Shown one piece after another: positions 2,573 to 6,092 of a stretch of 15,705 nt of DNA. The DNA is from Clostridia bacterium. GTDB taxonomy: Bacteria; Bacillota; Clostridia; Oscillospirales; Acutalibacteraceae. Location of the stretch: NCBI GenBank assembly GCA_017435665.1, contig JAFSEP010000051.1, positions 1 through 15,705 of the forward strand, in the 5' to 3' direction. A program made the translations under genes and the position numbers. A model generated the notes under the pieces. The model was given only the letters and a program-made list of their open reading frames with translations, made no database searches and was not told the DNA's origin. Within the stretch, counting starts at the first letter, position 1. The number at the start of each line of letters is the position of its first letter.

Positions 2573-3562
2573 ATGCTGAAATTTGCCCTTTTTGATGCAA
2601 GAGAATATGACCGACCTGCATTTGAACGTTGCAGCGAAAAATACGGTTTTGCCCTGAAATTTTTTGAAACAAAGCTGAACGAGGATACAGTTACTCTTGC
2701 AAACGGCTTCGACGGAGTAATTGTCTTTGTAAATGACACTGTCAACAAAGAAGTAATTGATAAGCTGACAGAATACGGTGTAAAAATAATCGCACTCAGG
2801 TGTGCAGGCTTTAACAATGTGGACCTGAAATCAGCCAAAAACAGAATAACGGTAGTTCGAGTACCTGCCTATTCGCCTCAGGCTATTGCCGAGCATACCA
2901 TGGCATTGCTTCTGTCGGCTGTAAGGAAAATTCACAAGGCATATATAAGAACAAGGAGCTTCAATTTCAGCATCAATGAGTTCACAGGCTTCGAGCTTCA
3001 GGGAAAAACCGTAGGAATTATCGGTACCGGCAGAATCGGCAGGGCATTTATAGAAATCTGCAGGGGCTTTGGCATGCAGGTGGTTTGCTATGATCCGCAC
3101 CCCGATGAAAACGGTAAATATAACTATGTCCCCCTTGAAACAATCTTTTCGGGGTCGGATATAATCTCTCTTCATTGTCCGCTGACAGCTGAAAATAAGC
3201 ATATAATAAATCGTGAAACGATTAGCAAAATGAAAAACGGAGCTATAATTCTGAATACCTCCAGAGGTCAGCTTATCGACACCCAGGCACTTATTGAGGG
3301 AATAAGAAGCGAAAAAATCGGTGCGGCGTGTCTCGATGTCTATGAGGAGGAATCAGATGTATTTTTTGAGGATCATTCCTCAGTTATCATCCGTGACGAT
3401 ACTCTGCTGAGGCTTATTTCCTTGCCTAATGTTATTGTAACCTCACACCAGGCTTTTCTTACAAGAGAAGCCCTGAACAGCATTGCCGAAACCACAAGCG
3501 AAAACCTGAGGTGCTTTTTTGGCGGAAAAACGCAGAACGAGGTCGAATACAGGGAACAATAA
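2573..3562 (+). CDS. ldhA: D-lactate dehydrogenase / D-isomer-specific 2-hydroxyacid dehydrogenase
   Basis: 329 aa, collinear with E. coli LdhA from memory (MLKFALFDAREYD...; IALRCAGFNNVDL; VVRVPAYSPQAIAEH; GIIGTGRIG; SLHCPLT; NTSRG; TSHQAFLT). I chose ATG 2573 (GGAG at 2561-2564) over the ORF-track ATG 2507, because LdhA homologues begin at MK(L/F)A. Confidence 0.93.
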   Translation: MLKFALFDAREYDRPAFERCSEKYGFALKFFETKLNEDTVTLANGFDGVIVFVNDTVNKEVIDKLTEYGVKIIALRCAGFNNVDLKSAKNRITVVRVPAYSPQAIAEHTMALLLSAVRKIHKAYIRTRSFNFSINEFTGFELQGKTVGIIGTGRIGRAFIEICRGFGMQVVCYDPHPDENGKYNYVPLETIFSGSDIISLHCPLTAENKHIINRETISKMKNGAIILNTSRGQLIDTQALIEGIRSEKIGAACLDVYEEESDVFFEDHSSVIIRDDTLLRLISLPNVIVTSHQAFLTREALNSIAETTSENLRCFFGGKTQNEVEYREQ

Positions 3563-3582
3563 AAAAATTTTTGTTAAATGGC

Positions 3583-3611
3583 TTGACAAAAAGGAAAAAC
3601 GCTCCTATAAT
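3583..3611 (+). promoter_or_regulatory. Sigma-A type promoter with perfect consensus hexamers
   Basis: TTGACA (3583-3588), 17-nt spacer, TATAAT (3606-3611). It lies 21 nt after the ldhA stop and 55 nt upstream of the next start codon. Confidence 0.75.
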
Positions 3612-3621
3612 TGAATTATAG

Positions 3622-3635
3622 AGAACATTTGTTCG
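3622..3635. promoter_or_regulatory. LexA (DinR) operator, Cheo box
   Basis: AGAACATTTGTTCG matches the Firmicute consensus CGAAC-N4-GTTCG at 12 of 14 positions (both GAAC/GTTC arms intact). It sits about +4 to +17 from the predicted TSS. A weaker overlapping half-site, CGAACAAACGTAAT, lies at 3634-3647. Confidence 0.6.
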
Positions 3636-3665
3636 AACAAACGTAATAAAAAAGGAGTGAAAAAA

Positions 3666-4295
3666 TTGTTCTACACATCAAAATCAATCGCATACTATGA
3701 CAGTATGCCCAAAGAAAAGGACTTCGATATTGACGAGGCCTGCAGTGTGTTTTTCAATTGGAAGGATGCAACCATTGAAAATGCCAAAGAATATGAAAAC
3801 AGAATCAGGAAGTTAAAATTGTTAAAAGTAATGAAGTCTATTATGGATAATGAGCTGACACCGACTCAGAAAGACATAGTAAGACTTCATTATTTTGAAA
3901 ATAAGAACGGCGAAGAAATTGCCGGAATGTACGGGATAAACCGTTCAACAGTCAGCAGAATGCTCAGTAAAACAGAAAGCATAATAAGGGAGCATATGAA
4001 GTATGTATTTGAGTACTCTGAGCTTGACCTGAGTGAAGAAGCACCGCCCGTAACAGTGGCAAGAGCGATTGCCTTCATAACTGCAGACAGCGCAAAGGCG
4101 GACAGCATAGGAAAGCGCATACGGAAAGCAAGAGAATCAAAGCTGCTTACACAGGAGCAGGTTGCAGCAGCAACAGGCATGACGGCGCAACGACTGGAGA
4201 TGATTGAAAAAAGTGGAAATTTGACAGTTCAGGAATTGATGAAGCTGATATTTTTCTTTTCCGTCAGCGCTGACTATATTATATACGGCGTGTGA
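3666..4295 (+). CDS. Dual-HTH DNA-binding protein: a sigma-70 region-4-like HTH fused to a C-terminal XRE-family HTH
   Basis: The segment LTPTQKDIVRLHYFENKNGEEIAGMYGINRSTVSRMLSKTESIIREHM looks like sigma70_r4 / YlxM-type HTH. The segment IGKRIRKARESKLLTQEQVAAATGMTAQRLEMIEKSGNLTVQELMKLIFFFSVSADYIIYG looks like HTH_3 (XRE). The start is uncertain. TTG 3666 lies 8 nt after AAAGGAG (3651-3657). The ORF-track GTG 3657 overlaps that RBS. ATG 3705 has no RBS. Confidence 0.7.
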   Translation: MFYTSKSIAYYDSMPKEKDFDIDEACSVFFNWKDATIENAKEYENRIRKLKLLKVMKSIMDNELTPTQKDIVRLHYFENKNGEEIAGMYGINRSTVSRMLSKTESIIREHMKYVFEYSELDLSEEAPPVTVARAIAFITADSAKADSIGKRIRKARESKLLTQEQVAAATGMTAQRLEMIEKSGNLTVQELMKLIFFFSVSADYIIYGV

Positions 4296-4557: not shown

Positions 4558-5106
4558 TTAATAAATATCTACTTTATCACACTTCCCCTTAACAAACTCC
4601 GAAAAGCTCTCATACTGTTCCTTTGACTCAAAGCAATTCAGGGGGAGTACGTATGCAAGAAGGTTGTTGATGTGAATGTATATAACCTTGCCGTCAACAA
4701 AGCTGATTCGTTCTATCGCCGAATACCTCTGCTCGGTTTTGTTGTCGGGGGTTATTTCGGTGAAGCAATCCTCATAAAATTCCATAACGGAATCGGGTGA
4801 ATAGCAGGGCTTTCCGCTTTTCTTCATCATTTTAAGCTGTCCCTTCAGCGACCATGCAAGAAAACGCTTGCAGACAGCCTGCATTATAATATAGAGAATT
4901 GCCAGAGGAATAACCGCAGTCAGCAGATACTCTGCAGAGAGGCCACCGACAATCAGAGAAAGCAGAACAGATGCCCCGAAAAGAACGGTAAGTGAAATCC
5001 TGAGATTTCTCAGCTGTTTTTTACCGTAAGGAGAACGTATAAGCTGAAATTTGTTGTATTCCAGATAATCCTCATCGGTCATTATTACATTAAATCGGTA
5101 TTTCAT
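4558..5106 (-). CDS. YcxB-like membrane protein (two central TM helices)
   Basis: 182 aa. The N-terminus MTDEDYLEYNKFQL, the central hydrophobic pair and the C-terminal ISFVDGKVIYIHINNLLAYVLPLNCFESKEQYESFSEFV fit the YcxB family pattern as I remember it. RBS AAGGAG is 8 nt upstream of ATG 5106. Confidence 0.6.
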   Translation of the reverse strand: MKYRFNVIMTDEDYLEYNKFQLIRSPYGKKQLRNLRISLTVLFGASVLLSLIVGGLSAEYLLTAVIPLAILYIIMQAVCKRFLAWSLKGQLKMMKKSGKPCYSPDSVMEFYEDCFTEITPDNKTEQRYSAIERISFVDGKVIYIHINNLLAYVLPLNCFESKEQYESFSEFVKGKCDKVDIY

Positions 5107-5333
5107 ATTATCACTCCTTGGGGGGATTATAGCATAAACTTAGAAATAAATCAATGCGAAGCATTGTATATCATCAATACCGAAGGAATTGTATATCATC
5201 AAAACTTTTGTTTTGTATATCATCAAGCCGACAGAAATGCACACTTCGTGTGATGATATACGCCTTAGGCGATGATATACACGACTGCGTCGTGATGATA
5301 TACCAAGCCTGTCGGCTTGGATAAAAAAAGAAC
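5104..5333. repeat. Complex repeat module, copy 1 (promoter and 5' UTR plus a 3+3 box array with interleaved hairpins)
   Basis: Homologous to 5744-5993. GTATATCATCA boxes lie at 5166-5176, 5191-5201 and 5215-5225. TGATGATATAC boxes lie at 5251-5261, 5270-5280 (first base C) and 5293-5303. Flanking hairpins are AATGC-GAA-GCATT (5153-5165) and CCAAGCC-TGTC-GGCTTGG (5303-5320). Every inter-box spacer is self-complementary. Confidence 0.9.
5126..5154 (-). promoter_or_regulatory. Promoter of the YcxB-like gene (inside repeat copy 1)
   Basis: The minus strand reads TTGATT (5154-5149), 17-nt spacer, TGC-TATAAT (extended -10; TATAAT = 5131-5126). CCCCCCAAGGAG and the ATG follow. Confidence 0.65.
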
Positions 5334-5356
5334 TGGGCGAAAACCGAGGATTTTCC

Positions 5357-5746
5357 TTACTTTTTATCAAAATACTGCTTGTATTCCCATTCTTGCATTA
5401 ACATTTTTAACGCCTCATCCTCTGTGCCAAAAAAGGAATATGCAAACGAGCGATCCATTGGGTTCCACCAAGCAGGAATGGCATTTTCTTGGTTGCAAAT
5501 ATACATCCACTCTTCTTCATCAAAAACACATAATTCCTCATATGTATATTTGTAATATCCGTTAACATTTTTTAAAAGAATAAATCTTTTTGTTTTTTCT
5601 TCATTGTAAATAACTCTTATCACTTGCATATCTTCTGAAAAAGATAAACTTTTATCAAACATCATTTCAACAATTTCAGAAAAAGGGGGTATTGGAGGGA
5701 CATTAGCTTTTATCTTTTTATTGAATATTTTTGAAAACAAGTTCAC
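5357..5746 (-). CDS. Hypothetical cytoplasmic protein (129 aa), strongly AT-rich gene
   Basis: GTG start at 5746 with AAGGCGG upstream. There is no TM segment or signal peptide and no motif I recognise. It is rich in W/Y/E (EEWMYICNQENAIPAWWNP). Its composition is visibly more AT-rich than the flanking core genes. Confidence 0.55.
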   Translation of the reverse strand: MNLFSKIFNKKIKANVPPIPPFSEIVEMMFDKSLSFSEDMQVIRVIYNEEKTKRFILLKNVNGYYKYTYEELCVFDEEEWMYICNQENAIPAWWNPMDRSFAYSFFGTEDEALKMLMQEWEYKQYFDKK

Positions 5747-5993
5747 TATATCACCGCCTTGAGTGTATTATAGCATAAAAGCGAAAACAAATCAATGCGA
5801 AGCATTGTATATCATCAGTTCCGAAGGAATTGCATATCATCAACTTCGTAAGAAGTTGTATATCATCAAGCCGACGGTTTTTTATGCACACCTAAAGGTG
5901 TGATGAGATACAAATGCGACTTGTCGCATTTGATGATATACACGTTATTGCGTGATGATATACCAAGCCTGTCGGCTTGGATAAAAAAAGAAC
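5744..5993. repeat. Complex repeat module, copy 2
   Basis: Boxes lie at 5807-5817, 5832-5842 (GCATATCATCA), 5858-5868, 5901-5911 (TGATGAGATAC), 5931-5941 and 5953-5963. The flanking hairpins and the right end ...CCAAGCCTGTCGGCTTGGATAAAAAAAGAAC are identical to copy 1. The spacers differ in sequence but are again hairpins. Confidence 0.9.
5767..5795 (-). promoter_or_regulatory. Promoter of the 129-aa ORF (inside repeat copy 2)
   Basis: The minus strand reads TTGATT (5795-5790), 17-nt spacer, TGC-TATAAT (TATAAT = 5772-5767). The geometry is the same as in copy 1. Confidence 0.65.
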
Positions 5994-6016
5994 GAAGCGA
6001 TTGCTTCGTTCTTTTT
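5983..6016 (-). terminator. Terminator of tRNA-Thr (the hairpin is symmetric, so it could act in both directions)
   Basis: GAACGAAGC (5990-5998), loop GATT, GCTTCGTTC (6003-6011), flanked by an A-tract on one side and a T-tract on the other. It starts directly after the tRNA CCA end. Confidence 0.8.

Positions 6017-6092
<76 letters not shown>

Follow-up and report, generated by a model that had tools for sequence, protein, structure and literature searches.

The closest described relative of the element treated here is Gut-1 (RF01706), a motif found solely in human-gut sequences and rated a likely RNA (Weinberg et al. 2010, PMC2864571). Gut-1 has stood in Rfam since 2010 as an orphan small RNA (sRNA) from gut metagenomes only, with a model of three hairpins on one strand, and the Gut-1 passages of the paper and its supplements mention no dyad, no link to tRNA and no promoter. 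A literature search on the repeated boxes described below, on Gut-1, on repetitive extragenic palindromes of Ruminococcaceae and their relatives, on four-helix-bundle proteins of the intervening-sequence type and on palindromes downstream of tRNA genes returned nothing relevant beyond that paper. Here we describe an intergenic module of gut Clostridia that occurs as two conserved tandem copies (copy 1, 5116-5340; copy 2, 5757-6016) in a 15,705-nt stretch of contig JAFSEP010000051.1 from a Clostridia bacterium (the window, to whose full length all coordinates refer). The module is conserved, multi-copy and dyad-symmetric, with real hairpins and one real long-range helix, and it is the downstream boundary of tRNA and transfer-messenger RNA (tmRNA) transcription units, fixed at their CCA end and terminator. 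Followed in the direction of the tRNA, it comprises the tRNA-CCA; A5, a bidirectional terminator and T7-AT; a terminal hairpin (H6); three (2-12) units of linker plus hairpin; a central segment; three units on the opposite strand; and a last hairpin (H0). Each unit consists of an invariant 10-nt linker, GTATATCATC, and a hairpin of 4-8 bp.

The initial annotation of this DNA knew of no Rfam motif with such a layout. Nothing matches the array at gathering thresholds, but the best sub-threshold hit, Gut-1 (28.0 bits versus a threshold of 50, E ~1e-3, 5230-5306 on the plus strand), has the same layout; the statement was nearly right. The module and Gut-1 share short hairpins in tandem (for the most part 4-6 bp, with loops of 3-5 nt), a conserved purine-rich linker of the TGA(T/A)AT type and an origin in human-gut Clostridia-like sequences, and the Gut-1 hallmark of at least three short hairpins parted by a repeated conserved linker is present in the window module. 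In the Gut-1 seed alignment with flanks (PMC2864571, Additional file 4), the tRNA T-arm motif occurs 13 times; all eight displayed passages with this motif begin right after tRNA-CCA, GAAAA, a terminator and UUUUUUC, and the downstream flanks carry inverted linkers (AAUAUCAC 31 times, AUUUCAC 33 times). Because its seeds follow a tRNA-CCA and terminator and have inverted linkers downstream, Gut-1 corresponds to the tRNA-proximal half of an analogous module. The same setting is found in window-type modules with the halves mirrored: the linker reads GUGA(A/U)AU(U) in the displayed Gut-1 seeds, with the ATATCA-type linker strand antisense in the proximal half, and in one seed hairpin checked by eye the ATATCA-type strand has a G·U instead of a C·A mismatch. 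The linkers themselves differ (GATGATATAC/GTATATCATC in the module, GUGAAAU/GUGAUAUU in Gut-1), as does the polarity of the halves with respect to the tRNA. Judged from these features, the window module is the same kind of element as Gut-1, with a different linker and mirrored polarity.

Several other systems resemble the module in part. Repetitive extragenic palindromes (REPs) and bacterial interspersed mosaic elements (BIMEs) are likewise multi-copy extragenic hairpins with a short single-stranded tag at the foot (GTAG in REPs, the linker in the module), clustered in both orientations, located after terminators and variable in copy number between strains. However, REP stems are conserved in sequence, whereas the module conserves only its linker while the stems drift by compensation; the fixed 3+3 layout, long-range helix, terminator, promoter and tie to tRNA 3' ends are further differences, and the tag is a 10-mer rather than GTAG/CGTC. 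REPs are accompanied by REP-associated tyrosine transposases (RAYTs; Y1 HUH), and in the flanks covered by the search, up to 3 kb from each of 72 modules, no gene resembling a RAYT was seen. Integron attC sites share imperfect dyads conserved in structure, single small genes between elements in one orientation and a strand-specific folded form, but the module has no GTTRRRY R/L core boxes in its sequence and no integrase among the open reading frames (ORFs) of the window, each module carries its own promoter and terminator, and its halves lie on opposite strands. Single-strand initiation (ssi) and primosome signals (the G4 and phiX174 origins, the ColE1 primosome assembly site, RSF1010 ssiA/ssiB), which are likened here by description and not by sequence similarity, are clustered stable GNA-loop DNA hairpins that function on one strand, sometimes as an opposite-strand pair; they belong to extrachromosomal replication origins, whereas the module has many chromosomal copies beside tRNA genes. 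Set against MITEs (miniature inverted-repeat transposable elements), the module has CCA followed by AAAAA at one outer end and a promoter or ribosome-binding site at the other. ToxI-like repeats of type III toxin-antitoxin systems are ordered as promoter, near-identical repeats, terminator and toxin, in contrast to the terminator, array, promoter and gene of the module, whose units have differing stems and whose downstream genes are unrelated. Finally, an operator or iteron array has constant helical phase and a conserved adjacent binder gene, in contrast to the spacing of 19-31 bp and the diverse neighbours found here.

Recurrence of the module and its junction with tRNA genes

Six boxes, three in each orientation, had been reported for copy 1, and all six are present at the reported positions (Table 1). 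Counted at up to one mismatch, the window contains 13 box matches, including a stray one at 12229, against 0.30 expected, and 13 matches were reached in none of 200 shuffles. According to a repeat finder, the similarity between the copies extends over 5116-5340 and 5757-6000, with 86% between 5116-5202 and 5757-5843 and 94% between 5291-5340 and 5951-6000; between these conserved ends, the spacers of the two copies are unlike in sequence yet palindromic in both.

A pattern scan for two exact boxes 8-24 nt apart, with one genome per species, matched at least 120 loci, and the 80 of them that were listed come mostly from (individual loci are designated below by L numbers) metagenome-assembled genomes of gut Acutalibacteraceae, Oscillospiraceae, 'Eubacteriales' and 'Clostridia'. 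A profile hidden Markov model (HMM) built from the two window copies in minus-strand ('sense') orientation recovered 72 full modules with unambiguous orientation, the scores being much higher in one orientation than in the other. Overall, about 65 species-level genomes of Clostridia/Oscillospirales carry related modules, with no more than two modules per 8-kb locus. The 3+3 layout is found in 50-51 of the 72 full modules, and none of the 72 has the reverse order of box orientations; variant modules have 2-12 units per half, resulting from tandem duplication, and single-orientation arrays exist as well. A local duplication without selected architecture, the case named at the outset as refuting the element, does not apply: the architecture is recurrent and selected. 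A phage or plasmid origin was also rejected: the 119 viral-contig pattern matches, among the matches listed, are due to chance only and contain no module by HMM, and plasmid and phage collections gave no blastn match to the module.

The tRNA-Thr gene next to copy 2 is the key to the element. Sixty-eight modules do not lie at contig ends, and ARAGORN located the 3' end of a co-oriented tRNA or tmRNA gene no more than 60 nt upstream of 38 of them; seven further modules have such a gene within 300 nt and another seven within 1.5 kb, including distal members of tandem pairs such as window copy 1. The genes concerned cover 14 tRNA identities and one tmRNA. The junction is exact in all 38 cases: the CCA end is followed by A5-6, a stem-loop, T7, AT and CC(H6), with TTTTTTTAT after the terminator, and the tmRNA case (L033, 1204-1596) has a CCA, A-run and terminator junction like that after tRNAs. 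Features of a rho-independent, bidirectional terminator, namely a G+C-rich stem-loop with an A-run on one side and a T-run on the other, are predicted in copy 2 and in all 38 tRNA-adjacent modules. Hairpin families of this terminator (CGACAAGT...ACTTGTCG; AGAACTTTTGTCTACCAAAAGTTCT) recur behind different tRNAs in different species, and because identical families follow different tRNAs, the terminator is part of the module.

The initial annotation had also raised arm-type sites or ends of a recombination substrate next to a tRNA gene. The tRNA neighbour proved decisive, whereas the arm of an integrated element did not hold up: the tRNA-Thr 3' end is not repeated elsewhere in the window, and integrations at other loci have moved the module away along with the former 3' end of the tRNA, so that the module is resident tRNA-downstream sequence. 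A classical tRNA-targeting island was rejected given the unrepeated tRNA-Thr 3' end in the window and the lack of an integrase among the window ORFs. Where no tRNA is adjacent, the module often lies behind a tRNA 3' remnant, CCA followed by AAAAA, with an intact tRNA 190-380 nt upstream (L025, L010, L012, L114, L034, L036 and L064), which is the outcome expected from insertion of other DNA into the tRNA 3' end. Other non-adjacent modules have a truncated terminator, as does window copy 1.

At the seven loci with a remnant (for instance, L025 at ~6617-6874 and L034 at 600-807), the intact tRNA carries a new terminator and is followed by 190-380 nt of foreign sequence and then by the displaced remnant and the module; these foreign stretches resemble scars or mini-insertions at the 3' end of the tRNA. 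At L073 (~1990-2055), L008 (~5970-6030) and L027 (~5715-5780), a common sequence, AAACTGTCCTTA, abuts a module terminator without its 5' half, and may be the end of an element inserting into the terminator.

At least two boxes were found behind 40 of 65 cluster-final tRNA genes, a sample biased by the choice of loci for their boxes. Several of the remaining cluster-final genes carry analogous arrays with other linkers, which suggests a wider class of tRNA-downstream arrays. These arrays include one of the Gut-1 type behind tRNA-Cys in L013 (~3540-3715; AGTGATATT/AATATCACT) and others behind tRNA-Ala in L058 (~1350-1517; ATGATATCC), tRNA-Arg in L046 (~2839-3010; CTTCACT/AGTGAAG) and tRNA-Gly in L040 (~3844-4010; TTCATTA).

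Covarying hairpins, a long-range helix and strand polarity

The spacers between boxes, described earlier as small palindromes, read as such in the sequence, with an internal A·A mismatch in the ATACC-GAA-GGAAT hairpin. In an alignment of 44 canonical modules, every hairpin stem includes pairs with double-sided change and retained pairing in 10-24 of the 44 sequences, and 97-99% of cells are paired. The covariation score is 0.67, against 0.17 for shuffled alignments (none of 500 reached 0.67), and it collapses when the partners are slid by 1-3 columns. Among the hypotheses proposed at the outset, a structured single-stranded nucleic-acid element fits these compensatory changes best. In addition, the base that follows a box and the one that opens the following box change together (ATACa...tGATGA to ATACc...gGATGA). 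The repeat itself was thus described correctly but not its length of 11 nt, because the first base of the 11-mer covaries with the base after the previous box and belongs to the neighbouring stem; the conserved linker is the 10-mer GTATATCATC, which reads GATGATATAC on the other strand.

The complementarity noted in copy 1 between AAGCCGACAG (5225-5234) and CTGTCGGCTT (5309-5318) was confirmed and belongs to a general feature of the family. In most modules, the 5' arm and loop of H6 are complementary to the central segment over 9-10 nt, and the pairing covaries through at least eight sequence types, including CCAAGCC-GACA with TGTCGGCTTG, the corresponding -GCA type with TGCGGCTTG, CCATTGC-GAAA with TTTCGCAATG and CCATTAC-GGA with TCCGTAATG. 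Even the loop bases of H6 covary with the centre (GACA/TGTC, GCA/TGC, GAAA/TTTC, GGA/TCC). The mean match is 8.4 nt, against 5.6 nt for permuted partners, and double-sided changes occur in four of the seven pairs of this long-range helix. DNA inversion between the 10-bp inverted repeat formed by the H6 arm and the centre was considered, but no flipped state was seen among the loci compared.

Pairing between boxes fared differently. The initial annotation had proposed that the forward and reverse boxes pair (F1:R3, F2:R2 and F3:R1) into stacked four-way junctions, and box-to-box helices do dominate the minimum-energy fold; the whole region folds better than shuffled sequence, with z = -5 and -6. 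However, the three box-to-box helices show double-sided change in 0 of 7, 0 of 10 and 1 of 10 pairs, and one of their pairs (alignment columns 120:171) is unpaired in 26 of the 44 sequences. Position-specific box variants are frequent and uncompensated (among 50 modules, the third proximal linker is GTATcTCATC in 28 and GcATATCATC in 15, and GATGATATgC is found in 16), and complementary variants occur together in no case, compared with about four expected by chance from arithmetic on the variant counts. Since the variants are uncompensated and complementary ones never co-occur, the stacked junction is not a selected structure; it is the thermodynamic optimum, but is rejected by covariation.

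The units are directional. Among 242 unique linker-hairpin units from all loci, oriented to the GTATATCATC strand, stem mismatches comprise 12 G·T but only 2 A·C, and loops are of the G..A form in 84 of 172 stems, compared with T..C in 5. GNA triloops (GAA 25, GCA 14, GTA 9, GGA 5) dominate, together with GNNA tetraloops, including GCAA (7) and GTCA (5), about half of them not GNRA (GTCA, GACA, GTTA). The excess of G·T over A·C mismatches together with the G..A bias establishes this directionality, and in the canonical module the proximal half is well-formed on the tRNA sense strand and the distal half on the other strand. The c(GNA)g and c(GNNA)g loops are the most stable loops of DNA mini-hairpins; very stable DNA hairpins include those of the d(GCGAAGC) type, the hairpin promoters of phage N4 and primosome assembly sites. 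The loop classes tilt the balance in favour of a single-stranded DNA state, with RNA still possible. Boxes are spaced 19-31 bp apart without helical phasing, and each position has 30-48 different spacer sequences among 50 modules; this range of spacing suits folded-out hairpins and not a phased duplex array.

Promoters, neighbouring genes and strain variation

On the minus strand of the window, the order is tRNA-Thr, copy 2, a 129-aa ORF, copy 1 and a YcxB-like ORF (Table 1). The promoter described upstream of the latter was recovered by a consensus scan, along with its twin in copy 2; both are predicted from sequence to be sigma-A promoters, with 10 of 12 consensus matches plus TG. A fused promoter of this kind, with TTGATT overlapping the 3' arm of H0, 17 nt and a TATAAT-like -10 element, mostly with TGn, is present in 20 of 50 canonical modules. 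A second class of promoter lies 45-70 nt further on, and some modules have no promoter or face a convergent terminator. No conserved antisense promoter was found among the canonical modules examined, and a dedicated one was rejected on this ground. Near-identical promoters and 5' untranslated regions (UTRs) precede non-homologous genes in window copy 2, L074 and L057, which indicates that the promoter travels with the module; the module is a predicted promoter source for small accessory genes.

Downstream genes are diverse, encoding lipoproteins, membrane proteins, regulators and enzymes. The only recurrent neighbour within 3 kb is a gene for a 115-126-aa four-helix-bundle protein of the 23S rRNA intervening sequence (IVS) type, near 11 of the 72 modules; as a cognate factor, this protein was rejected, with nothing beyond the enrichment supporting it. 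The gene lies directly after the module in L019, L042, L064, L101, L104, L107, L080 and L082, and upstream in L040 and L117; in the four cases inspected (L019, L042, L064 and L107), it is located between the module promoter and an unrelated gene that starts a few bases past its stop codon. In L030, nine units of a single orientation form an array that separates a stop codon from the ribosome-binding site of the gene that follows, and because of this position the array is transcribed through within an operon.

Contigs with an identical homoserine dehydrogenase fall into two haplotypes. The window haplotype has the tRNA, a module, the 129-aa gene, a second module and ycxB, whereas the L240 haplotype has a single module and lacks the 129-aa gene. 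The L240 module is a mosaic, similar to copy 1 on the promoter side and to copy 2 in the middle, and differs in the terminator, the H6 type (CCATTGC-GAAA), the proximal-half hairpins (H5, H4 and the H3 loop), the matching centre and the presence of four distal boxes. Even among strains of one species, H6 and centre have changed jointly. The module, at which several assemblies break, is a local hot spot of strain variation. Elsewhere in L240 (7210-8030, versus 7017-7075 of the window), an extra gene for a 127-aa zinc-ribbon (DZR) protein with its own promoter lies between hom and a leucine-rich repeat gene, with no module attached.

Table 1. Features of the two module copies and adjoining genes in the window
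Feature	Position	Strand	Basis
tRNA-Thr (GGT); encoded CCA end abuts the module	6017-6092	-	ARAGORN; Rfam tRNA, 70.4 bits
Copy 2 predicted bidirectional intrinsic terminator; on minus strand A5, GAACGAAGC-AATC-GCTTCGTTC, T7	5983-6016	.	Sequence; junction CCA, A5, stem-loop, T7, AT, CC also in 38 modules
Copy 2 terminal hairpin H6, CCAAGCC-GACA-GGCTTGG on minus strand	5963-5980	-	Sequence; covarying stem
Copy 2 tRNA-proximal array; three linkers GTATATCATC on minus strand with hairpins between; boxes 5901-5911, 5931-5941, 5953-5963	5901-5963	-	
Copy 2 central segment, complementary to H6 5' arm and loop	5868-5876	-	9-nt match CAAGCCGAC
Copy 2 distal array; three linkers GTATATCATC on plus strand; boxes 5807-5817, 5832-5842, 5858-5868; H0 at 5793-5807	5793-5868	+	
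Copy 2 predicted promoter TTGATT-17-TGnTATAAT; -35 overlaps H0 3' arm	5767-5795	-	Consensus scan
129-aa ORF, placed under copy 2 promoter; no Pfam family at cut-off; missing with one module in strain variant	5357-5746	-	
Copy 1 terminator remnant, GTTC-T7-AT on minus strand; 5' half of stem missing	5321-5340	-	
Copy 1 terminal hairpin H6	5303-5320	-	
Copy 1 proximal array; boxes TGATGATATAC at 5251-5261, 5270-5280 (one mismatch, CGATGATATAC), 5293-5303; hairpins CGCC-TTA-GGCG and CACGAC-TGC-GTCGTG (plus-strand letters)	5251-5303	-	
Copy 1 centre; AAGCCGACAG (5225-5234) pairs with 5309-5318; also hairpin H3, CACAC-TTC-GTGTG	5225-5250	-	
Copy 1 distal array; boxes GTATATCATCA at 5166-5176, 5191-5201, 5215-5225; H0 at 5152-5166	5152-5225	+	
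Copy 1 predicted promoter TTGATT-17-TGnTATAAT, then AAGGAG ribosome-binding site	5126-5154	-	Sequence; consensus scan
182-aa YcxB-like ORF, placed under copy 1 promoter	4558-5106	-	Pfam PF14317, E = 1.9e-07

Two further repeats of the window lie outside the module copies. The lone box-like site at 12229 (GCATATCATCA; 12223-12248), 22 nt of which are 82% complementary to 5284-5305, is located inside an ORF without a Pfam match (11708-12472) and may be a chance occurrence or a relic unit. A separate 51-nt repeat is found at 2444-2494 and 9733-9783, inverted, 94% complementary and 7.2 kb apart. A pair of G+C-rich hairpins, CCGCCC...GGGCGG and GTGCGGC-GAA-GCCGCAC, makes up this repeat; its first copy is intergenic, and the second, just 3' of an AI-2E transporter gene, is probably intergenic too, judging by the gene calls of L240.

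Candidate functions of the module

The reading that we favour, with a probability of only about one in three, is that the module serves as a boundary element acting in single-stranded form between a heavily transcribed stable-RNA gene and its neighbour. The hairpins would fold from single-stranded nucleic acid, which could be nascent RNA from read-through or DNA that supercoiling, transcription or replication has opened, and folding would expose the invariant 10-mers as repeated sites for a putative conserved sequence-specific factor. With one array per strand, the module could act for a polymerase arriving from either direction, and the arrays, bidirectional terminator and built-in promoter together would insulate the stable-RNA gene and restart expression of the neighbour.

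Several observations weigh against this reading. Most sense RNA is expected to end at the strong terminator that precedes the array, no antisense promoter is conserved, and DNA hairpins with 5-bp stems are rarely extruded. Furthermore, the halves are mirrored relative to the tRNA in the Gut-1-type family, so that a simple insulator logic is not general; about one-quarter of the modules are not near a tRNA, many lack a fused promoter, and the L030 array is necessarily transcribed through. Two more specific proposals were dropped. The rule that an incoming polymerase meets the well-formed units first fitted the window-type family and L030 but not the mirrored Gut-1-type arrays. A reading of the linker as a Rho utilization (rut)-like site was rejected because the linker has two YC dimers and its complement none, the exact conservation of the 10-mer favours a sequence-specific reader, and complementary linkers would mask the sites.

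The module could instead be a structured sRNA or a tRNA 3'-trailer RNA, transcribed by tRNA read-through or from the opposite strand; it might, for example, soak up an RNA-binding protein or an sRNA like a sponge, or provide a structure for processing or stabilisation. We consider this possible but unlikely. Compensatory evolution of such extent is typical of RNA, the array is flanked by a bidirectional terminator, the L030 array must be part of an mRNA, the whole region folds better than shuffled sequence, and Gut-1 was itself rated a likely RNA in the passages of Weinberg et al. that deal with it (PMC2864571). Yet the array sits past a strong intrinsic terminator and ahead of a promoter, and the other strand has no conserved promoter. 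The well-formed halves lie on opposite DNA strands, so that no one transcript would hold all the good hairpins, and the box pairing that dominates the predicted RNA fold has not been kept in evolution. The dominant GNA triloops, and the GNNA tetraloops of which about half are not GNRA, belong to stable-DNA classes rather than to typical RNA loops.

An origin as a non-autonomous mobile or recombining repeat, similar to REP/BIME, MITE or cassette-junction elements, is likewise a doubtful but serious candidate. Under this explanation, a trans-acting single-stranded DNA (ssDNA) enzyme or recombinase would read the linker and hairpin and copy or exchange the module, perhaps as module-gene units, at tRNA 3' flanks. 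The module is multi-copy and extragenic with units in both orientations, the same terminator, promoter and 5' UTR are joined to unrelated genes and different tRNAs, tandem module-gene pairs are common (window, L034, L040 and L116), and the number of units is altered by tandem duplication. The strain variation is of a piece with this: in a strain whose homoserine dehydrogenase is identical, the 129-aa gene and one module are missing and the module present is a mosaic, assemblies break at the module, and the gene of the IVS-type four-helix bundle is the sole recurrent neighbour. However, genes for a transposase, an integrase or an HUH enzyme do not recur in the 3-kb flanks, and no target-site duplication or terminal inverted repeat was noticed when the junctions were read, although the flanks were not searched systematically for duplication. 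The unrepeated tRNA 3' end in the window and the absence of the module from the viral matches listed and from the plasmid and phage collections also speak against mobility; moreover, the stems are position-specific and evolve by compensation instead of being copied identically like REPs, and the displacement of the module by integrations into tRNA genes identifies it as resident sequence.

A somewhat slimmer chance attaches to the broader proposition that neither the module nor the Gut-1 'sRNA' is an RNA gene, both being DNA-level elements of strand-specific d(GNA)/d(GNNA) mini-hairpins extruded beside the most transcribed genes. Such elements might serve as sites of replication restart or primosome loading, as polar barriers or as devices for torsional stress, with a putative linker-reading protein. 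The narrower version of an ssDNA genome-maintenance signal, that is, sites of primosome assembly and replication restart or extruded structures that buffer or report torsional stress, is improbable. The loop classes and C:G closing pairs match the extraordinarily stable DNA mini-hairpins, each strand has one array, the position immediately 3' of tRNA and tmRNA genes would be apt, and differences between families in the polarity of the halves matter little if either strand can be exposed; nevertheless, the case is wholly inferential, known primase or PriA determinants are absent from the invariant 10-mer, and positive supercoiling downstream of a strong gene disfavours extrusion. Least probable by our estimate is the double-stranded operator or iteron array proposed in the initial annotation, for which six near-identical boxes upstream of a promoter with its -35 element fused to the array and a nearby protein with sigma-70 region 4 and HTH_3 domains (3657-4295) speak, but which is disfavoured by unphased spacing, by covarying spacer palindromes and strand-biased loops that a duplex site does not need, by the lack of any recurring helix-turn-helix (HTH) gene within 3 kb of the 72 modules, by the many modules without an adjacent promoter or between convergent genes, and by an association that is strongest with the upstream tRNA and not with the downstream gene.

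For Gut-1, these results suggest that Gut-1-like motifs are halves of larger dyad-symmetric modules. The question thereby moves from the role of an sRNA to what takes place just downstream of stable-RNA genes, at their boundary, in Clostridia abundant in the gut, and experimental handles are provided by the invariant 10-mer, which can serve as bait, by the strand prediction and by the long-range helix. Should the DNA-level reading be true, the module would represent a class of element, so far unrecognised, for chromosome maintenance or for boundaries that is tied to bacterial tRNA genes.

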